Of a stretch of 64,000 nucleotides of DNA, positions 17,941 to 63,060 are shown piece after piece (the stretch's first letter is position 1; each line of letters starts with the position of its first letter). Source of the stretch: Patescibacteria group bacterium (GTDB lineage: Bacteria; Patescibacteriota; Patescibacteriia; Patescibacteriales; UBA12465); contig JBBACQ010000001.1 in assembly GCA_041656935.1 (NCBI GenBank), positions 93,459 to 157,458 on the forward strand. Direction: 5' to 3'. Below the pieces are notes generated by a model. The model searched no databases. It had not been told where the DNA came from and saw nothing but the letters and a program-made list of their open reading frames with translations. A program made the translations under genes and the position numbers.

Positions 17941-18016
17941 GTTTAAAAAACAATTAAAATATTTTTTATGATAATTCTTGGAAATATTAAAAAAATATAG
18001 TAAAATTAATTTTTTA

Positions 18017-18090
18017 CTTGCCAGCAATTCAAAATTTCAGGATATTCGCTATAAAATTTTTCATGCCACTTTTTCTAAAAAGTGCCATAA
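18017..18090 (+). repeat. single copy of the 77-nt 'arm + GCCAC hairpin' repeat unit
   Basis: CTTGCCAGCAATTCAAAATTTCAGGATATTCGCTATAAAATTTTTCATGCCACTTTTTCTAAAAAGTGCCATAA is near-identical to the units at 30807-30959. Confidence 0.8.
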
Positions 18091-18094
18091 AAAA

Positions 18095-19800: not shown

Positions 19801-20073
19801 GCTATCTATTTTTTAAGTTACGTTAATTAAATTGTTTATAAACTCCACCTAAATCTACTGAATAAAAAAGATGGATTTAATAAACAATTTAATTATTAAA
19901 CTTTTTTGTCGAAGAACTAAATAACCCCATATTATAGCATATATTCATAAATATGTCAAGGATTTAACTAAAAAGAGGTAAACTAAAAACAAAAAACCTC
20001 CCCAATGAGAAGTCTTTAGAGCTAATAAACACTAATTACTATAAAAAAATAATACCCTAATGCCGACCAGATA

Positions 20074-24548: not shown

Positions 24549-24620
24549 TTGTGTTTATCGTGAACATTCAAAAATTTTGGAAAAAATATTTTTTAGGCCA
24601 CTTTTTTAGAAAAAGTGCCA
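24549..24620 (+). repeat. variant copy of the arm + hairpin repeat unit
   Basis: TTGTGTTTATCGTGAACATTCAAAAATTTTGGAAAAAAT resembles 31083-31121. It is followed by GGCCACTTTTTTAGAAAAAGTGCC, ending 10 nt before the GT4 ATG. Confidence 0.7.
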
Positions 24621-24630
24621 TAATAAAACT

Positions 24631-25692
24631 ATGAAAATAGCAATAATCAATAACCTATACAAACCCTATCACAAAGGTGGAGCCGAGAAGGTTTGCGAAA
24701 GACTAATCACCGAATTAGAAAAAAACGGTCATTTTTGTTTTATCGTCACCACTAAACCAAAAATATTAACCGACACAAACCAAAATCCCAAGACCTATTA
24801 CCTCGATTCCAACTATTATAACTTAGGAAAAAAATCACTCCCCTATCGCTTTTTCTGGCAAATCGGAAATATTTTTAATTTTGGCCAAGGAAAAAAATTA
24901 AAAAAAATATTACAACTAGAAAAACCCGACTTAATTATATCTAATAATTTAATGGGCATCGGCTTGAAAACTTTCCAAATTATTAAAAAATTAAACATTA
25001 AACATACCCACATCTTACACGACATTCAATTGATCCACCCCTCTGGTTTAATAATTTTTAAACAAGAAAAAATTATCAACACTCTACCTTCCAAGATTTA
25101 CCAAAACATTAGTCGTTATTTTTCTGGCTCACCAGAAAAAGTAGTTTCCCCTTCTAATTGGCTATTACAAGAACATATTAAAAAAGGCTTTTTCAAGAAA
25201 AGCGAAAAAATAGTTCAGCCCAACCCTCAGCCATTCGGAGAAAAAAAAGAAATTATTAGAGAAAAAAATAAAAACACAACTGACTTTTTATTTATTGGCC
25301 AAATAGAAGAACATAAAGGAATAATTTTCCTAATTGAAACTTTTAAAAAAATAGAAAACGCCAAAATTAATCTTAAGATTATTGGTGACGGAAAATTAAT
25401 AGATAAAATAAAATTAATAGCTCAAGATGATAACCGTATCAAAATTTTAGGACTAAAAAATAAAGAAGATGTGACTAAAGAATTAATCGAAGCTGATTGC
25501 TTAATAGTTCCCTCGCTTTGTTATGAAAACTCCCCTACGGTAATTTACGAAGCTCAGCATTTTAATCTACCGATTATCGCTTCAAATATTGGCGGTATTC
25601 CAGAATTACTACTAAAAGAACCAAACTCATTATTTAAACCCGGGAATGGAAAAGAACTTATCGAGAGAATAAATAAGTTCGCACCGAAATAA
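24631..25692 (+). CDS. glycosyltransferase family 4
   Basis: VPSLCYENSPTVIYEAQHFNLPIIASNIGG: GT4 E-x7-E-like region. Confidence 0.8.
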   Translation: MKIAIINNLYKPYHKGGAEKVCERLITELEKNGHFCFIVTTKPKILTDTNQNPKTYYLDSNYYNLGKKSLPYRFFWQIGNIFNFGQGKKLKKILQLEKPDLIISNNLMGIGLKTFQIIKKLNIKHTHILHDIQLIHPSGLIIFKQEKIINTLPSKIYQNISRYFSGSPEKVVSPSNWLLQEHIKKGFFKKSEKIVQPNPQPFGEKKEIIREKNKNTTDFLFIGQIEEHKGIIFLIETFKKIENAKINLKIIGDGKLIDKIKLIAQDDNRIKILGLKNKEDVTKELIEADCLIVPSLCYENSPTVIYEAQHFNLPIIASNIGGIPELLLKEPNSLFKPGNGKELIERINKFAPK

Positions 25693-29678: not shown

Positions 29679-30647
29679 CTATTTTTTTAATTTTTGCCAC
29701 CACGAAGGGTTCTCTTTATACCAATTAATTGTTTTTTCTAAACCAACAATAAAGTCTATTTGAGGAGCCCAACCTAATTCTCGCTTAATTTTAGAAAAAT
29801 CAATGGCATAACGCCAATCATGACCTGGTCTATCAGCGACATATTCAATCATTTCGTCTTTCTCATCCATTAATTTTAAAATATTTAATGTAATATCAAT
29901 ATTTTTAATTTCATTATCGCCACCCAAACAATAAGTTTCGCCAATCTTTCCTTTTTTAATAATCATTTCTACCCCACGATTATGATCATCAACGTGAATC
30001 CAATCACGAATATTTTCTCCTTGACCATAAACGGGAATCTTTTTCCCTTCGATAAGATTAGTAATAAAAAGTGGAATTAATTTTTCTGGATACTGATAAG
30101 GACCATAATTATTAGAACAATTGGAAATGGTAATTGGTAGTTTATGAGTATGAAAATAAGCTCGAACTAAGTGATCGGAACTAGCCTTGGAAGCACTATA
30201 AGGTGAACGAGGGTCATAAGGTGTTTTTTCATTAAATTTAGGATCATTTAATTCTAGAGAACCAAAAACTTCATCAGTCGAAACATGATGAAAACGAATA
30301 TTGCCATTATTTTTAGCACAATCTAATAAAATACGAGTTCCCTCGACATTGGTTTTTATAAAATCAGCACTATTCTCTATAGATCTATCAACATGACTCT
30401 CGGCCGCGAAATGAACAATCAGATCAACCTCTTTGACAATACCATTAACTAAATTATAATCGCAAATATCTCCCTGAATAAATTTGTAATTCTCTCCTTC
30501 TTGAATATCTTTTAAATTTTCTAAGTTTCCAGCGTAAGTTAATTTATCTAGGTTAATAATATTATCTTTAGGGTTAGATTTAAGCCAGTATCTAATGAAA
30601 TTAGAGCCAATAAAACCAGCTCCGCCGGTTACCAAAATTCTAGCCAT
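29679..30647 (-). CDS. rfbB: dTDP-glucose 4,6-dehydratase
   Basis: ILVTGGAGFIGSNF, HFAAESHVDRS, STDEVFG, YSASKASSDH. Confidence 0.9.
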   Translation of the reverse strand: MARILVTGGAGFIGSNFIRYWLKSNPKDNIINLDKLTYAGNLENLKDIQEGENYKFIQGDICDYNLVNGIVKEVDLIVHFAAESHVDRSIENSADFIKTNVEGTRILLDCAKNNGNIRFHHVSTDEVFGSLELNDPKFNEKTPYDPRSPYSASKASSDHLVRAYFHTHKLPITISNCSNNYGPYQYPEKLIPLFITNLIEGKKIPVYGQGENIRDWIHVDDHNRGVEMIIKKGKIGETYCLGGDNEIKNIDITLNILKLMDEKDEMIEYVADRPGHDWRYAIDFSKIKRELGWAPQIDFIVGLEKTINWYKENPSWWQKLKK

Positions 30648-30806
30648 AATGGTTTGTTTTAATAATAATTAGTTATTTTATTATACTATAATAAAGTTTT
30701 GGAGTAAAGAATAACCTTTTTGTGCTATTTTTTTAGGAAAAATACCCACTTGACCATCTCTGGCGAAAAAAATTAGCAAACTAAAGTTTTTTTTAAAAAT
30801 AATAAT

Positions 30807-30959
30807 TTTTTCATGCCACTTTTTTAGAAAAAGTGGCCCAAAAATCGCCAGCAATTCAAAATTTCAGGACATTCGCTATAAAGTTTTTCATGCCACTTTT
30901 TTAGAAAAAGTGGCCCAAAAATCGCCAGCAATTCAAAATTTCAGGACATTCGCTATAAA
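30807..30959 (+). repeat. tandem duplication, 2 x 77 nt (arm + GCCAC hairpin)
   Basis: 71 nt starting at CATGCCAC (30812 and 30889) are identical by my alignment. Each unit has the hairpin GCCACTTTTT-TAG-AAAAAGTGGC (30815-30837 and 30892-30914). Confidence 0.9.
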
Positions 30960-31062
30960 AGCTAGTAAAATTTAGAACTCGGATGAGCTTCGCTCATCCT
31001 CAAACAGCTAAATTTTACACGCTTTTTACGCTTATGTCTAATCTGAAATTTTTCAAAGCTGG
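30925..31062. repeat. extended imperfect palindrome A (about 138 nt), candidate MITE or structured RNA
   Basis: Outer arms CCAGCAATTCAAAATTTCAGGACATTCGC / ACGCTTATGTCTAATCTGAAATTTTTCAAAGCTGG; inner stem 30965-30975/31008-31018 (11 bp, all Watson-Crick); apical hairpin GGATGAG-CTTCG-CTCATCC. Confidence 0.7.
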
Positions 31063-31090
31063 CAAGTAAAAAAAATTAATTTCTTGTTTT

Positions 31091-31225
31091 CTTGCGAACA
31101 TTAAAAAATTTTGGGGAAATTGCGAGTGTAGAAACCTTGCAAAATTTGGTTGTTTGAGGCGTAGCCGAGTTCTAAATTTTGCTAGGTTTCATAACGAGCA
31201 ATCCAAAATTTTTTAGTTCGCTAAG
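31091..31225. repeat. extended imperfect palindrome B (about 135 nt), inverted homologue of A
   Basis: Outer arms 31091-31114/31203-31225; inner stem 31131-31147/31174-31190 (17 bp, 1 mismatch). The reverse complement aligns to A through AAAATTTAGAACTCGG...CCTCAAACA.C.AAATTTT. Confidence 0.7.
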
Positions 31226-31344
31226 TTTTTTTGGACACTTTTTTTGTTAAAAAAAGTGTCTTAATAAATAAGTAAGTATACAAAAAACTTTAGTTCGCTA
31301 TTTTTTGGATGCTTTTTTTATTAAAAAAGTGTCTTAATAAATAA
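31214..31344 (+). repeat. diverged tandem repeat, again with 77-nt period, each unit carrying a hairpin variant
   Basis: TAGTTCGCTA at 31214 and 31291. Hairpins GACACTTTTTTT..AAAAAAAGTGTC (31234-31260) and GATGCTTTTTTT..AAAAAAGTGTC (31308-31333); both are followed by TTAATAAATAA. Confidence 0.75.
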
Positions 31345-31383
31345 TTCAAGTTTTAAATATTCGTAAGAAAAATATTTAAATCA

Positions 31384-31836
31384 CTATGAAATAGTATAAG
31401 GAGAATCTTTATCATCTTCCCAACGGATTTCATCAATTTCTTCTTTCTTGCCCTCTCCCTTATACAACTTATCTGGAAAATTTAGACAATATGAGTCACC
31501 GGGGCCCAAGGCCTTATAACCATGAACCACTCCCGGTGGAACAACAATTAAAGTCGGCTCCCCTTCTCCAGCTTCAATACTTAGATGTTCCCCCTTAGTT
31601 TCACTGTCTTCTCGTCGGTCCCAAAGATGAAGACTAAACTTTCCCGGACCAACAAAAACAAAACAATCACTCTGATTTTTGTGCTCATGCGGACCACGAA
31701 TAACTCCCGGCTTAGTAACACTGATATAGGCCATTTCTGGCCGATAATCAAATTCATCGGACCGATAAACCTCACTCAACCAACCACGATCATCGTGATA
31801 TTGGTCTAATTTTTTAATAATTACTCCATTTATCAT
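31384..31836 (-). CDS. rfbC: dTDP-4-dehydrorhamnose 3,5-epimerase (short cupin form)
   Basis: HDDRGWLSEVYR...IRGPHEHK...LIVVPPGVVHGYKA: cupin epimerase pattern; rml context. Confidence 0.8.
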   Translation of the reverse strand: MINGVIIKKLDQYHDDRGWLSEVYRSDEFDYRPEMAYISVTKPGVIRGPHEHKNQSDCFVFVGPGKFSLHLWDRREDSETKGEHLSIEAGEGEPTLIVVPPGVVHGYKALGPGDSYCLNFPDKLYKGEGKKEEIDEIRWEDDKDSPYTIS

Positions 31837-31986
31837 ATTTTTATAATTAATTATAAATATTTTTATTACTTAGATTCTAACATTTAATCTCCCTAAAAAC
31901 AAGTTAATCTAAAAATCAAAATCTTACCCCCGACCACCAAAAAGAGATAAAAATGTTCAACATATATAAATATTTCTGTCAAAACC

Positions 31987-32015
31987 TTGCTTTATTTTAA
32001 TACTTATGATATCAT
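31987..32015 (+). promoter_or_regulatory. candidate extended -10 promoter for rpmE
   Basis: TTGCTT (31987-92), 17-nt spacer containing the extended -10 TG (32007-08), then TATCAT (32010-15), about 50 nt upstream of the ATG. Confidence 0.3.
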
Positions 32016-32067
32016 CAAGAACATCCATTAAACATAATGGTTTTATTATTTACATTATAAAATAAAT

Positions 32068-32340
32068 ATGAAAAAAGATATTCATCCTAAATACAATCAC
32101 AAAATAAAAGCTAGTTGTGCTTGTGGTTTTTCTTTCACCACTGGATCAACTGAAACGGAAATAAAAACCGAGCTATGTTCAGCTTGCCATCCTTTTTATA
32201 CTGGAAAACAAAAATTAGTTGATACCGCTAATAGAGTCGGAAAATTCAAAGCCAAATTAGAAAAAAAAGATGATACCCGATCAGGTAAAAAAGCCAAAAG
32301 AACTGCTAAATCTAAAAAACAAGCCGAAAAAAATAAATAA
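32068..32340 (+). CDS. rpmE: 50S ribosomal protein L31 with K-rich C-terminal tail
   Basis: MKKDIHPKY...CACG...[13 protein letters not shown]. Confidence 0.9.
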
Positions 32341-59218: not shown

Positions 59219-59494
59219 AACAAAATTTAAAATTAAAAATTAGATAATTTCATTACTTAAATTATAAAATAATATTACCTTTACTATTATAAAATAAAGA
59301 TAAAAAAGATATAAACACAAGATAAAAATTGAGGAATAAATAAATGTCAGAAAGAGAGCAGAGTTTATTATTAAACAACTATTAACACTAGATTTGGATA
59401 AAATAAAATTGCCCGAAAGCAACAAATATTCTAAACCAGCTGATTAATATAAAAAAGTAATATTCTTAAAATATTGAAGACTATTCTAAATGTG

Positions 59495-59568
59495 AGCCGC
59501 CTGTCGGGTTCGAACCGACGACCTACTGTTTACAAGACAGTCGCTCTAGCCAACTGAGCTAAGGCGGC
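59495..59568 (-). tRNA. tRNA-Thr (anticodon UGU)
   Basis: Hand-folded cloverleaf: acceptor GCCGCCT/AGGCGGC, D arm GCTC/GAGC, anticodon stem ACTGT/ACAGT with loop CTTGTAA, T arm GTCGG-TTCGAAC-CCGAC. CCA is not encoded. Confidence 0.9.
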
Positions 59569-59573
59569 GAGAA

Positions 59574-59685
59574 TTCAATTATCAATTATCAATTACCAAT
59601 TATCAATTATTTAGTCGCGTGTCATATAACGAATTCGGGGGCTATACTCGGCAATTAATTGAAAATTGAAAATTGATAATTGAAC
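59574..59685. repeat. heptamer-repeat inverted repeat in the tRNA-Lys/tRNA-Thr spacer
   Basis: Five TCAATTA-type heptamers (59574-59610) face TTGAAAA/TTGATAA heptamers (59651-59685). The first 14 bp pair perfectly, giving an imperfect stem of about 27 bp. Confidence 0.7.
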
Positions 59686-59696
59686 ATTCACTAAAG

Positions 59697-59769
59697 TGCG
59701 CCCAGCAGGATTCGGACCTGCGACCTTCTGCTTAAAAGGCAGCTGCTCTACCAGCTGAGCTATAGGCGC
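59697..59769 (-). tRNA. tRNA-Lys (anticodon UUU)
   Basis: Acceptor GCGCCTA/TGGGCGC, D arm GCTC/GAGC, anticodon loop CTTTTAA, T arm GCAGG-TCCGAAT-CCTGC. CCA is not encoded. Confidence 0.9.
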
Positions 59770-59939
59770 AAATTTATCTAAATAAAACAAATTAGACCAA
59801 CGGTCTATTTATTTAGATTATAATTAAAAAATAAAAATAAATCAATAGTTTTTAGATTAACCATAAACTATGGATAAAAAGTGAATTAATAGTGGAAAAC
59901 AAACTTGATTTAAAAAAGCAGTTAAGATATTATATAAAC

Positions 59940-61325
59940 ATGTCAGAAAAAAATATAAACAACTTAGAGAAACTTCCTCCACAAAACATTGAGGCCGAAC
60001 AGTCGTTATTGGGCTGTTTATTATTGGATAAAGAGGCAATTTTCAAAATAATTGACATTATCCAAGCCGAAGATTTCTATCATAATAATCATAAATTCAT
60101 CTTTGAATCGATGCTTGATTTATTTAATAATCAAGAACCCATAGATATAGTAACCTTATCAAACCGGCTAGAGGAAAAAAAGATGATTCAAAACGTTGGT
60201 GGACGAACTTATTTAGCTCAATTATCGAACACCGTGGCAACCTCAGCCAATACTACTTATTATGCCAACTTAATTCAAAAAAAGGCTACTCTTAGAAGAT
60301 TGCAAGTTTCCGCTAGCGAAATAATGGACCTAAGCTTTGAAGAAGAAAGAGAAATTGATGATGTTTTAGACCAAGCTGAGAAAAAGATATTTGGCGTATC
60401 CAGAAAATATTTAAAAAATTCCTTTTTAGGTATCGATAGCTTATTAACCGAAGCCTTCGAAAGAATAGATGAACTGCATAAAAGAAGCGGAAATTTAAGA
60501 GGGCTTTCAACTGGGTTTTACGATTTAGACAATTTATTAGCTGGTTTACAAAAATCAGATTTAGTAATATTGGCCGCTCGGCCTAGTGTTGGTAAAACAG
60601 CTTTAGCCATGGATATAGCTCGCCAAGCAGCTATAAAAAACAAGGCAGGAGTAGGAATTTTCTCTTTAGAAATGAGCAAGGAACAATTAGTAGATAGAAT
60701 GCTCTGTGCTCAAGCTAATGTTAATTTATGGAAAATGAGAACTGGAAATTTGTCTGATAAAGATGAGGACAGCGATTTTTCAAAAATTGCCGATGCGATG
60801 GGACTATTATCAGAAGCTCCTATTTATATTGATGACTCCCCTAACATCTCAGTTATGGAAATTAGAGCTAAATCAAGAAGACTACAATCAGAAAAAGGAT
60901 TAGGTTTAGTAGTGGTAGATTATTTACAATTAATGGAAGGCCGAGGAAAATACAGTGATAATTGAGTTCAAGAAATATCCGAAATAAGTCGCGGTCTAAA
61001 AGGTATCGCCCGTGAACTGAATATCCCCGTTTTAGCCCTAGCCCAATTATCAAGAGCCGCCGAACAGCAAAGCGGACCAGCCATCCCTAAACTGTCTCAT
61101 CTCAGAGACTCCGGTTCTATTGAACAAGATGCTGATGTAGTAATGTTTATATACCGTAAGGCTGCCGATCGAGCCTATAATATCCAAGATCTCCCTATGG
61201 ACGAGAGATATAAAGCTGAAATCCATATCGCTAAACACCGTAATGGACCTACCGGAAAGATTGATTTGTTCTTTTCTGAAGAAACTGCTAGTTTCAAAAA
61301 TATCAGCAAAACTGGAGACAATTAA
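59940..61325 (+). pseudogene. dnaB: replicative DNA helicase DnaB, single frame interrupted by one in-frame TGA (60963-60965)
   Basis: PPQNIEAEQSLLGCLLLD..., Walker A ARPSVGKTALAMD, VVVDYLQLM, then TGA, then VQEISEISRGLKGIAREL...LAQLSR...LRDSGSIEQDAD...KHRNGPTG. Track ORFs 59892..60965 and 61143..61325 share the frame. The likely true start is ATG 59940. Confidence 0.85.
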
Positions 61326-61380
61326 AATTAATACAGTGGTTACTAACTCAAAAATATTATTTATAATTAAATAGAAAATT

Positions 61381-61656
61381 ATGTTCGGAAAATTAAAACA
61401 ATTAAAAGATTTACGCAGTCAGGCCAAAACTATGCAAAGTGCCTTATCAGAAGAAAAAATTGAAATGGAAAAAAATGGGATTAAACTAAGCATGAATGGC
61501 AATATGGAAATTACTGATTTAAAAATTACTTCCGATTTAAGCAAAGAAGAAATTGCTCGAACTAGTAAAGATCTTTTTAATGAGGCTATCAAAAAAACCC
61601 AAAGGATAATGGCCAAAAAAATGCAAGAAATGGGTGGTTTTCCAGGATTAAATTAG
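61381..61656 (+). CDS. ybaB: YbaB/EbfC family nucleoid-associated protein
   Basis: 91 aa: KQLKDLRSQAKTMQSAL...LFNEAIKKTQ...MGGFPGL; typical size and position next to recR. Confidence 0.85.
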   Translation: MFGKLKQLKDLRSQAKTMQSALSEEKIEMEKNGIKLSMNGNMEITDLKITSDLSKEEIARTSKDLFNEAIKKTQRIMAKKMQEMGGFPGLN

Positions 61657-61666
61657 AGAATAAAAA

Positions 61667-61686
61667 ATCGCACTTTTGGGTGCGAT
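61667..61686. terminator. terminator hairpin between ybaB and the convergent orphan gene
   Basis: ATCGCAC-6 nt-GTGCGAT. T6 follows on the minus strand; AAAATTTT follows on the plus strand. Confidence 0.6.
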
Positions 61687-61692
61687 AAAATT

Positions 61693-62022
61693 TTAAAAAC
61701 AGTTCGCCATTCTTAATACTTGAACTGAAATTTCTTTATCTTGAAATTTTTTATTTTTTGTTGTCAGATCAATTTCTTTTCTAATAATTTTATAATTACT
61801 CCCAGGAGTTAAAGAATTAAAGTTAGAAAAGGCTTTATTATATTGAGATGATTGCTGAGGTCCAATATATTTGACCTCCGACCCGTTCTTAGTATGTCTA
61901 AATTCCTCGAGGTTAATCACCCCCTTGATCTTTCTTCTTTTTCTGGAAAAAAAATTAATGGGCAAAGAGACCTCTTCTCCTAAATTATTCAAAATTACAA
62001 AACGGTCAAAATTGTTGTTCAT
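61693..62022 (-). CDS. hypothetical protein
   Basis: 109-aa ORF with a strong SD (AAGGAG) 7 nt upstream of the ATG and a terminator downstream. I recognise no family. Confidence 0.6.
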   Translation of the reverse strand: MNNNFDRFVILNNLGEEVSLPINFFSRKRRKIKGVINLEEFRHTKNGSEVKYIGPQQSSQYNKAFSNFNSLTPGSNYKIIRKEIDLTTKNKKFQDKEISVQVLRMANCF

Positions 62023-62083
62023 AGAATCTCCTTTGTTCTTTTATTGTTAAAGTAAAAATCTATTTTATATTAATATCTAAAAA

Positions 62084-62698
62084 ATGTCAATACAATATCC
62101 CCAATCTATAGAAAATTTAATAAAACAATTCTCTAAATTGCCTAGTGTTGGAAGAAAAACAGCCGAACGCTATGTTTTTTATCTATTAAATCAAAAAACA
62201 GACCAACTAAGATCTTGGGCCAAGAATATTAATGAAGTATCGGCCGGTTTAAAATTCTGCCAAAAATGTTTTAATTTATCAGAAAAAAGTCCTTGCCAAA
62301 TATGTTCTGATAATAAAAGAAAAGAAAATTTAATTTGTTTAGTAGCTAATCCCCAGGATTTAGTGGCGATAGAAAATACCAAACAATACGAAGGTAAATA
62401 TTTTGTTTTAGGCGGATTAATAAACTCTATAGAAAATTTTGGACCAGAAAAATTGAATATTAAAGCCCTAATTAAAGAAATAAATTCTAAATTAAAAAAT
62501 AATCAAAAAATAGAGATAATATTAGCCCTCAGTCCAACAATTGAAGGAGAGGCGACTTGTTTATACTTACAGAAAATTTTAAAAAATCCTAAAATAAAAA
62601 TAAGTAAATTAGCCCGAGGATTATCAACTGGCGCCAGTTTAGAATACGCTGATGAAAATACCTTAGCTAACGCCCTAAAATTTCGTAGAGATATTTAG
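62084..62698 (+). CDS. recR: recombination protein RecR
   Basis: LPSVGRKTAERYVFYL (HhH), CQKCFNLSEKSPCQICSD (Zn finger), Toprim region. Confidence 0.9.
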   Translation: MSIQYPQSIENLIKQFSKLPSVGRKTAERYVFYLLNQKTDQLRSWAKNINEVSAGLKFCQKCFNLSEKSPCQICSDNKRKENLICLVANPQDLVAIENTKQYEGKYFVLGGLINSIENFGPEKLNIKALIKEINSKLKNNQKIEIILALSPTIEGEATCLYLQKILKNPKIKISKLARGLSTGASLEYADENTLANALKFRRDI

Positions 62699-62703
62699 AA
62701 AAC

Positions 62704-62733
62704 AAAAAAGACTTTTTCCGAAAAGTCTTTTTT
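62704..62733. terminator. bidirectional terminator between recR and rplU
   Basis: AAAAAAGACTTTT-TCCG-AAAAGTCTTTTTT. Confidence 0.65.
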
Positions 62734-62745
62734 GTTTGAAAAATA

Positions 62746-63060
62746 TTAAGAAATTTTTTCTACTTTTATTTGAGTAAATTCTTGACGATGACCAACTGTT
62801 TTTTTATATCTAGTTTTACTCTTATATTTTACAACTAGAACCTTTTTATTTTTTCCTCTAGTTAAAACCTCAGCTTCAACCTTTTCTCCTAAAGATGGTT
62901 TGCCTAAATCAATAACACTCCCGTCGGTTTCGGCTGTCATCAAAGTTTCAAATTTCACCTTTTTTCCAGGTTCAGTGGAGAGTTTTTCTATTTTTAAAAC
63001 ATCACCCTCTTTAACCTTATATTGTTTTCCTCCTGTTTTAATTATTGCTATCTTAGCCAT
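62746..63060 (-). CDS. rplU: 50S ribosomal protein L21
   Basis: MAKIAIIKTGGKQYKVKEGDVLKIEKL...GHRQEFTQIKV. Confidence 0.9.
   Translation of the reverse strand: MAKIAIIKTGGKQYKVKEGDVLKIEKLSTEPGKKVKFETLMTAETDGSVIDLGKPSLGEKVEAEVLTRGKNKKVLVVKYKSKTRYKKTVGHRQEFTQIKVEKIS

Follow-up and report, generated by a model that had tools for sequence, protein, structure and literature searches.

The rmlC–rmlB spacer and its two long hairpins

The element described here lies in a stretch of 64,000 nucleotides from a Patescibacteria group bacterium (assembly GCA_041656935.1, contig JBBACQ010000001.1, positions 93,459 to 157,458 of the forward strand). The whole of this stretch is referred to below as the window, and its G+C content is around 31%. 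Two minus-strand genes, one for a 150-aa dTDP-sugar epimerase-like protein, called rmlC here (31384–31836), and the other rmlB (29679–30647), which is followed by rmlD, rmlA and hisS, are separated by a spacer of 736 nt (30648–31383). This spacer holds a composite element of about 650 bp (30712–31362), at the core of which are two long hairpins, A and B. With somewhat better than even confidence, A and B are read as the inner halves, inverted and diverged, of a single composite intergenic repeat of palindromic form, similar in kind to the REP (repetitive extragenic palindromic), BIME and REPIN elements or to ERIC. The element has been inserted or has expanded in the short rmlC–rmlB spacer of a Patescibacteria lineage, and has since been reshaped by tandem duplication.

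Hairpin A (30924–31063) folds better on the minus (‘anti’) strand, with an RNA minimum free energy (MFE) of −59.6 kcal/mol as against −54.6 kcal/mol on the plus strand (z −8.4 and −10.7, respectively). Hairpin B (31091–31225) is inverted relative to A and folds better on the plus strand (−52.0 kcal/mol, as against −44.0 on the minus strand; z −7.6 and −8.0). On either strand the two hairpins thus fall between −44 and −60 kcal/mol, compared with −18 to −28 for shuffled sequences, and none of 200 shuffles was as stable as A or B, both of which fold as one extended hairpin. An earlier note on this DNA had proposed two hairpins of around 135 nt in inverted orientation, and these are confirmed both by folding (z −7.6 to −10.7) and by alignment.

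The same note had correctly placed the 11-bp inner stem of A, which forms the lower stem of the apex (30965–30975 / 31008–31018), and its apical hairpin, GGATGAGC-TTC-GCTCATCC, at 30981–30999. Between them lie two loops, AACTC (30976–30980) and TCAAACAG (31000–31007) in plus-strand letters. In B, the stem at 31139–31149 / 31172–31182 carries the loops TTGTTTGA (31150–31157) and GAGTT (31167–31171) around an apical GGC-GTA-GCC hairpin (31158–31166). The 17-bp stem that had been ascribed to B (31131–31147 / 31174–31190) is present, but a T.T mismatch at 31138/31183 leaves it with 16 pairs. The feet of the hairpins read GCCAGC/GCTGGC and CTTGCGAAC/GTTCGCTAAG. The plus strand of A can be aligned to B's reverse complement through AAAATTTAGAACTCGG...CCTCAAACA(G/A)C(T/C)AAATTTT, and the two are 59% identical over the whole element. 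A compensatory T-A to C-G pair that had been noticed between A and B is real in the apex alignment. The G.T pairs said to form on the plus strand only are likewise borne out, at 31148/31173 in B and at 31310/31331 and 31311/31330 in a short hairpin at 31309–31333, all of which become A.C on the minus strand. A 28-codon open reading frame (ORF) running from the apex of A was rejected as a coding sequence, as it is conserved neither in B nor in the copy of a relative, L038.

Organisation of the composite palindrome

A and B belong to a larger symmetrical structure. Positions 30792–31357 (566 nt) form one imperfect palindrome centred near 31075, which in a blastn comparison matches its own reverse complement at 66% over 598 aligned positions (E 3.5e-53). 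The layout can be written [H][H][A][B][H][H]. In this notation, H stands for a short hairpin built of a T-run and an A-run, and A and B are copies of an extended hairpin of 135–140 nt, termed E. Only 27 nt lie between the feet of A and B, and this centre of symmetry (31064–31090) contains the palindrome AAATTAATTT at 31073–31082, the arms of the central inverted repeat I9 being found at 31046–31073 and 31084–31111. The central sequence GCTGGCAAGTAAAAAA..TTAATTT occurs once more, inverted, at 18003–18025.

On the side of A, the adjoining H hairpin (30885–30921; core GCCACTTTTTTAGAAAAAGTGGC at 30892–30914; inverted repeat I22) is joined to the foot of A by the linker CCAAAAATC, and a second, duplicated H hairpin is found at 30808–30844 (core 30815–30837; inverted repeat I21). 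Both have the form GCCAC-T6-AGA-A5-GTGGC. They belong to two tandem plus-strand units of 77 nt (30804–30880 and 30881–30957; repeat family D1) that are 99% identical, each consisting of an H hairpin and the left arm of E (GCCAGCAATTCAAAATTTCAGGACATTCGCTATA). On the side of B, a T7 run separates the foot of B from an H hairpin at 31226–31268 (core GACACTTTTTTTGTTAAAAAAAGTGTC at 31234–31260; inverted repeat I17) of the form GACAC-T7-GTT-A7-GTGTC. An outer, degenerate H hairpin follows at 31301–31341 (D4), with its core at 31309–31333, and it is this core that holds two G.T pairs, which form on the plus strand only. The H cores measure 23–27 nt and their extended stems 37–43 nt; E is far larger than a REP.

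Arm-like and H-like motifs are also seen at the two ends of the composite. At the rmlC-side junction, a terminal arm-like motif (31348–31371; CTTACGAATATTTAAAAC on the minus strand; I14, 83% complementary to 31087–31110) is similar to the foot of B (CTTGCGAACATTAAAAAA) and to the first motif of the insertion in L038. The rmlB-side end (30713–30765; D2, D3) starts with a degenerate H-like half (30713–30741) and contains a motif, CCCACTTGACCATCTCTGGCG (30745–30765), that is found inverted at the rmlC side in the relatives L028 and L029.

The window as a whole has six H hairpins at three loci, two of which are separate plus-strand modules without an apex. One, at 18003–18093, just downstream of a methyltransferase gene, combines an E-arm (GCCAGCAATTCAAAATTTCAGGATATTCGCTATAAA) with an H hairpin (89% over 75 nt). 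The other, at 24554–24627, joins a B-type arm (GTGAACATTCAAAAATTTTGG) to an H hairpin, the same combination that opens the L038 insertion, and it ends shortly before a glycosyltransferase gene at 24631. H is often located where a ribosome-binding site would be, being around 10 nt before the ATG of this glycosyltransferase gene and 26 nt before that of leuC in Avibacterium.

A covarying apex with invariant loops

The apex of E has a fixed order of parts, consisting of a stem, AACTC, a variable hairpin, TCAAACA and the other side of the stem. It was compared in seven to nine copies, drawn from a relative within the Candidate Phyla Radiation (CPR), four Avibacterium species and one metagenome contig. 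The search for it combined a regular expression with a pairing test; MAFFT had misplaced a one-base indel in the 3′ loop. In alignment A2, 98.8% of the cells are paired and 7 of the 14 pairs have changed on both sides, a result equalled by none of 500 shuffles, and slid controls on the same alignment gave 18–62% pairing. The lower and apical stems vary by paired substitutions and the apical hairpin is free in both length and sequence. The loops AACTC and TCAAACA are invariant in the seven tabulated copies, with TCAGACA in the copies of A. avium and A. endocarditidis, which are not tabulated. The proposal that pairing rather than sequence had been preserved, made on two copies, is hence strengthened by a larger set in which the apex stems covary.

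The two conserved blocks of the apex are spaced by anything from 5 to 17 nt, which would be most simply explained by recognition in a folded single strand and not in duplex DNA. The two strands also differ in how well they fold. The strand reading ..TGTTTGA-stem-GAGTT.. is the more stable by 4–10 kcal/mol in all eight copies, with 0, 1, 1, 2, 5, 2, 2 and 2 G.U pairs per copy as against 0, 0, 0, 0, 0, 1, 1 and 1 on the other strand, and an E copy of Pasteurella multocida described below has the same asymmetry. On the better-folding strand, every E leads into a T-rich linker, with H after it. This asymmetry follows the element and not the flanking genes, and is compatible with either RNA or single-stranded DNA. 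With its invariant loops, covarying stems, free apical hairpin and better folding of one strand, E is under constraint as a folded single strand and not as a duplex. Compensatory changes by themselves do not tell an RNA apart from a palindrome in DNA.

Filled and empty sites among relatives

The loci of relatives were collected from the RmlC side; contigs from the rmlB side were left out, the exact RmlB of the window not being on record. The RmlC homologues carry Patescibacteria names (Falkowbacteria, Parcubacteria), and the gene order PrmC-RF1-L31 | rmlC-rmlB-rmlD-rmlA-HisS is kept. Relatives with an RmlC 79% identical to that of the window (L030–L037 and L039) have the same gene order and an rmlC–rmlB spacer of only 59–75 nt, holding just the promoter TTTACG-17-TATAAT. 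L038, with an RmlC 83% identical, has a 297-nt spacer with one copy of arm, H and E. L028 and L029 (85%) have an H hairpin and a B-type arm, a partial copy, before the contig ends, and the window has two inverted E copies in its 736-nt spacer. The site is therefore filled in some relatives and empty in others, as in MITEs (small transposable elements with inverted repeats) of the ERIC or Correia kind.

The E copy of L038 is 80% identical to A and 62% to B, and is inverted with regard to the genes when compared with A. In both L038 and the window, the insertion begins between a few and about 17 bases past the rmlC stop codon with the same arm motif. This shared start point and motif suggest one ancestral insertion that would later have been rearranged. 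The promoter-like site of rmlB in the window (30680–30708, minus strand; TTTACT-17-TATAAT) lies outside the element and is kept from the uninterrupted spacer, with its counterpart TTTACG-17-TATAAT in the empty sites of L030 and L034. A possible 8-bp direct repeat is seen at the junctions of the window element, GTAAAGAA (30704–30711) and GTAAGAAA (31363–31370), although it is imperfect. No target-site duplication is visible at the L038 insertion, and no terminal inverted repeats apart from the overall palindrome were found for the window element.

Short-read contigs of the Logan collection from three samples stop inside the element. L001 (window 31043–32094) stops at window position 31043, and L028 and L029 stop 97 nt after rmlC. 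The ending of contigs within the element indicates that the repeat breaks short-read assemblies.

Recurrence in Avibacterium, Pasteurella and Burkholderiaceae

An exact-pattern scan for the apex in one genome per species gave matches only in Avibacterium paragallinarum and A. volantium. The match exceeds the search pattern, as it includes the pairing partner of the stem, an extended hairpin of around 135 nt (z −6 to −7) and an adjoining H-like hairpin. The 16-nt and 9-nt blocks of the apex and the pairing partner of the stem are all common to the window and Avibacterium. An apex-bearing hairpin occupies the leuB–leuC spacer in A. paragallinarum, A. volantium, A. avium and A. endocarditidis, the last two having one loop change. 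Three of these species have a single copy. A. paragallinarum has a second, diverged and inverted E and a second H, giving [H][E][inverted E][H]; its inverted E copies are 54% identical, as compared with 80–90% between orthologues. The element is absent from the leuB–leuC locus of Pasteurella canis. In A. paragallinarum (L003), an insertion sequence of the IS1016/IS1595 family (2211–2929), with a 219-aa DDE_Tnp_IS1595 protein and inverted ends of 19 bp that match perfectly (GGGGCTGTAGTAGATTAGC), is found at a distance of 3 kb, upstream of the leuB–leuC element; a link between the two was rejected, as its ends are unrelated in sequence.

Among the 21 loci returned by a metagenome scan, the apex stem closes only in contig L023, which has two A-T to T-A swaps in the stem. 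L011 was excluded from the copies, its apex blocks matching and its stem not. In this metagenome contig of 27% G+C (770–960), two G+C hairpins, each followed by TCTCAAAA(A/G)TAGTAGTCG, flank the partial apex match (GGCTTCGCC, then TCAAACA), of which the lower stem does not close; these repeats may be of a different family. Three matches in viral contigs all fall in one tail-fibre coding sequence without hairpin closure and were discarded as chance. The window element has no blastn match among plasmids and phages, and the Avibacterium element none among phages.

The architecture extends beyond the apex. In Pasteurella multocida (CIRMBP-0884, record NZ_CP020346.1; L046 1500–1920), dapF and the DUF484 (yigA)-xerC genes flank a composite of the form [H][E][inverted E][H]; the arms of its E are like those of Avibacterium, and its apex loops, CAGACTAC and TTCGCTGACG, are different. 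The H hairpin of Avibacterium with its linker, CAAAAGAAA, has matches of about 91% identity at around 40 places per replicon in Paraburkholderia, where H sits at both ends of palindromic elements of approximately 606 nt. One such element, on plasmid p1 of Paraburkholderia sp. PGU16 (L047 1471–2076), has 170-nt arms that are 92% complementary and is present at about 40 places per megaplasmid; the observation also takes in loci L049–L052. The terminal 70 nt or so are conserved in Caballeronia and other Burkholderia and the interior differs. The H-bearing ends of the Burkholderiaceae composites are conserved and their interiors variable, whereas for E alone it is the apex that is conserved between CPR and Avibacterium, and not the arms. 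The H region is also matched in Ralstonia, Burkholderia and Pseudoalteromonas, and the Paraburkholderia H has no match in E. coli genomes. The flanks of the Paraburkholderia-type elements hold further repeats (GCTGGCATCCGCG.. and tandems of TTTGCTTTTGC).

Proposed origin and mode of action

In the proposed scheme, the layouts seen in relatives would have arisen by inverted duplication and by recombination between the element's own inverted copies. The element would persist and spread as selfish DNA by way of its hairpin form, which could be recognised in trans by an enzyme encoded outside the window, for which the RAYT-type single-strand transposases (RAYT, REP-associated tyrosine transposase) are a precedent. 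Since it lies inside a row of co-directional genes, the element is probably transcribed, and its hairpins may in that case affect the processing, stability or insulation of the rml mRNA, with rmlB keeping what is predicted to be its own promoter downstream of the insertion. The terminator scan found no Rho-independent terminator in the element; an A-run comes after H on either strand, and E with its T-run is only loosely terminator-like.

Several observations weigh against a composite repeat of this kind. No transposase, Y1/HUH enzyme or recombinase gene is present among the ORFs of at least 120 aa in the 64-kb window, all of which are housekeeping or glycan-related. The ends of the element are not clear, as the 8-bp repeat is imperfect and overlaps both the arm-like motif and the −35 box. 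The conservation between CPR and Avibacterium concerns the apex of E and not the ends, the opposite of what is seen with a MITE bound by a transposase. The homology of the CPR and proteobacterial H hairpins consists of position, structure and the short consensus C[CT]AC-T run...A run-GT[GA]G, with no significant alignment. The apex is found at one locus in the window and at one per Avibacterium genome, where it is stable across the genus, and this low, stable copy number looks, from the genomes compared, more like that of a maintained functional element than of an active repeat. Finally, the gap between H and leuC in Avibacterium is 26 nt and leaves no room for a promoter, which means that transcription of leuC has to pass through the element, so that any terminator-like action must be weak and a strong terminator role is unlikely.

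It could instead be argued that E is a gene for a small non-coding RNA, read on the ..UGUUUGA-stem-GAGUU.. strand, with A (minus) and B (plus) diverging from the centre, each ending at a U-run, and with the invariant loops binding a protein or a target RNA. This appears quite unlikely. The covarying stems and invariant loops would suit it, as would a strand asymmetry whose G.U pairs favour the same strand in 8/8 copies irrespective of the direction of the flanking genes, and the T-run that follows E in the better-folding orientation in every copy. In addition, the loop residues around the apical stem read GA...GA, so that tandem sheared G.A pairs would be possible, and the central palindrome gives a TAATTT hexamer 8–9 nt before each foot. 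However, only tRNAs reach the gathering score of Rfam 15 in the window, and even at E ≤ 10 only generic long-hairpin (miRNA-type) chance matches are added; the leuB–leuC spacer of Avibacterium has no Rfam match either. A promoter scan detected only weak promoter-like sites inside the element and no acceptable −35/−10 pair upstream of A or B, which have 27 nt between their feet, and the copies of Avibacterium and L038 have no conserved promoter before them. Furthermore, copy number and orientation vary among close relatives, the locus is absent from those with 79% RmlC identity, and the E of P. multocida has the same arms with different loops, so the loops are not universally required. Of the suggestion in the earlier note that the pair is a structured RNA or a pair of MITEs, what holds is that pairing is kept. 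Two free-standing RNA genes are not supported, given the Rfam result, the lack of a convincing promoter and the closeness of the feet, and a plain MITE pair is disfavoured by the ambiguous target-site duplication and the absence of terminal inverted repeats distinct from the overall palindrome.

A possible but rather unlikely explanation places the function wholly at the DNA level, with hairpins extruded in single-stranded DNA at the replication fork serving as the substrate of a trans-acting HUH/Y1 enzyme (RAYT- or IS200/IS605-like) or some other recombinase that is specific for structure. Recognition would be by way of the invariant apex loops or the GT[AG]G of the H hairpins, and any effects on RNA would be incidental. 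The variable spacing of the conserved blocks, which implies recognition of a fold, agrees with this, and G.T pairs are tolerated in DNA hairpins too, so the strand asymmetry fits equally. The GTGG or GTAG in the 3′ arm of H resembles the tetranucleotide conserved in REPs; both phyla have acquired inverted doublets; some 40 copies with conserved ends and variable interiors are found per Paraburkholderia replicon; and the CPR relatives differ at one locus, where the element is present in some, missing from others or inverted. Yet neither the window nor the fetched loci contain a gene for such an enzyme, the only transposase seen being the IS1595-family one of L003, with its unrelated ends. Moreover, GT[AG]G lies inside the H stem rather than 5′ of the foot as in REPs, and each Avibacterium genome has a single stable locus. 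An invertible, phase-variable switch for rmlB and the downstream glycan genes, with the inverted copies as recombination sites, seems very improbable. The position upstream of rhamnose and glycan genes, the inversion of H and E relative to the genes in L038 as compared with the window, and the breaks of the Logan assemblies inside the element speak for such a switch. The rmlB promoter, though, is outside the palindrome and in the same place as in element-free relatives, there is no recombinase gene in the vicinity, identity between the inverted copies is just 54–59%, and the same architecture occurs at leuB–leuC and dapF–yigA, where phase variation is not expected. It is just as improbable that the structure is a functionless by-product of AT-rich, low-complexity DNA made palindromic by replication slippage or template switching. 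The region is AT-rich and its many T-run and A-run repeats do yield numerous weak self-matches, but the z-scores of −7 to −11, the covariation above all shuffles and the recurrence of the 16-nt and 9-nt blocks with their stem pairing partner, in the same architecture, in another phylum all disfavour such an origin.

For the composite repeat itself, a bolder extension concerns the apex of about 50 nt (stem, AACUC, free hairpin, UCAAACA, stem). This might be a discrete unit with a function of its own, transferred between Patescibacteria and Pasteurellaceae independently of its arms. It would serve either as the recognition site of an undescribed machinery, acting in trans, by which hairpins are copied into existing palindromes at their centres, or as a conserved protein-binding RNA motif, and the composites would then form an unnamed, cross-phylum class of foldback elements working in single-stranded form. 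Such an extension is put forward as a speculation and is, on present sequences, doubtful.

Comparison with known systems

The REP, BIME and REPIN elements of Gammaproteobacteria, which are mobilised by RAYT, a Y1 transposase, are similar in several ways. They too are extragenic and located inside operon spacers, and consist of short imperfect palindromes in mosaics of alternating orientation, with inverted doublets able to form a single long hairpin, features specific to one strand, presence or absence among relatives and GT[AG]G as a hairpin-associated motif. The H hairpins have the dimensions of a REP unit, an imperfect extragenic palindrome of about 20–40 nt. In contrast, a REP measures 20–40 nt and a REPIN about 100 nt, whereas E has 135–140 nt and the composite 400–650 nt. 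Conservation is strongest here in an internal loop at E's apex, and the tetranucleotide, GTGG in CPR and GTAG in Proteobacteria, forms part of the 3′ arm of H, where CCAC or CTAC pairs with it. Avibacterium has few copies, and no RAYT gene is seen in the window, where no ORF of at least 120 aa has a Y1_Tnp domain.

ERIC/IRU (127 bp), RU-2 and RU-3, Correia (NEMIS) and RUP elements are likewise imperfect palindromes of 100–170 nt in transcribed intergenic spacers, found in either orientation, with the same site filled or empty in related species and with conservation across genera through compensatory changes that keep the hairpin. Elements of this type have been proposed to act on mRNA processing and stability. 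Unlike them, the present element has no TA or other clear target duplication, is always accompanied by H hairpins, tends to occur as inverted pairs and is common to phyla as distant as Patescibacteria and Pseudomonadota; there is also no sequence similarity. The RU family is described in PMC2759123. The intergenic dyad sequences of Haemophilus influenzae (Read and Farley 1997; Read et al. 2000) resemble the element in their Pasteurellaceae host and in the extended dyad symmetry within intergenic spacers. They are reportedly conserved extragenic elements, and what is reported of them fits the modules next to glycan genes and the changeable junctions seen here. They may belong to the same class and provide a lead.

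Integron attC sites share recognition as a folded single strand; their base is paired, their internal spacer unpaired and their variable terminal structure of free length, and they are strand-selective. They differ in that the conserved residues here are in the internal loop and not the basal stem, and there is neither an integrase nor a cassette organisation. An attC identity was rejected, as the R″ (RYYYAAC) and R′ (GTTRRRY) boxes are absent and the loop GTTTGAG does not fit GTTRRRY. The eukaryotic foldback elements (FB and Galileo) are alike in that the whole element is one long palindrome whose arms contain tandem sub-repeats, here the 77-nt units, but they are on the kilobase scale and associated with a transposase. 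To our knowledge, nothing comparable to them is established for bacteria.

Other candidates were also set aside. No tRNA or tmRNA from which the element could derive is found in the region. The defining consensus positions of an integration host factor (IHF) site are lacking. A CRISPR-repeat-like unit was dismissed, as the copies are not direct repeats with spacers and there are no cas genes. The loops would allow the tandem G.A pairs of a kink-turn (K-turn), but the bulge geometry does not agree with one. A search of the literature by sequence strings and by topic found no description of the element.

Other features of the window

Some further structures were noticed elsewhere in the window. 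Between tRNA-Thr (59494–59568) and tRNA-Lys (59696–59769), a segment at 59574–59688 consists of inverted arrays of AT-rich octamers (AATTATCA... / ...TTGAAAAT) with 29-nt arms that are 90% complementary. In the region 59892–62083, a DnaB-like ORF ends at 60965 and covers only positions 1–144 of the 255-position DnaB_C profile. It is separated from recR, at 62084, by about 1.1 kb without an ORF of at least 120 aa, and could be a split, interrupted or frameshifted dnaB. Strong spacer hairpins are present at 19824–19895 and 62691–62746, one having 27-nt arms with 89% complementarity and the other, A6-GACTTTT...AAAAGTC-T6 after recR, resembling a bidirectional terminator.

Significance

We know of few repeat families that have been described in the small, compact genomes of Patescibacteria, and in this one a composite palindrome of 650 bp has entered an operon spacer of 60–75 nt. 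Distinctive points are the hairpin apex common to Patescibacteria and Pasteurellaceae and the recurrent foldback architecture bounded by H. The near-identical apex in the leu operon of Avibacterium implies either the horizontal movement of a tiny structured module or a strong shared constraint on its fold. Together, the Pasteurella composites and the H-ended palindromes of Paraburkholderia suggest a widespread class of bacterial foldback repeats, of which the literature search yielded no description. Avibacterium is cultivable and would allow direct tests of the form, RNA or single-stranded DNA, in which the fold acts and of the partner that recognises its invariant loops. Such elements may mark recombination-prone junctions in glycan loci.

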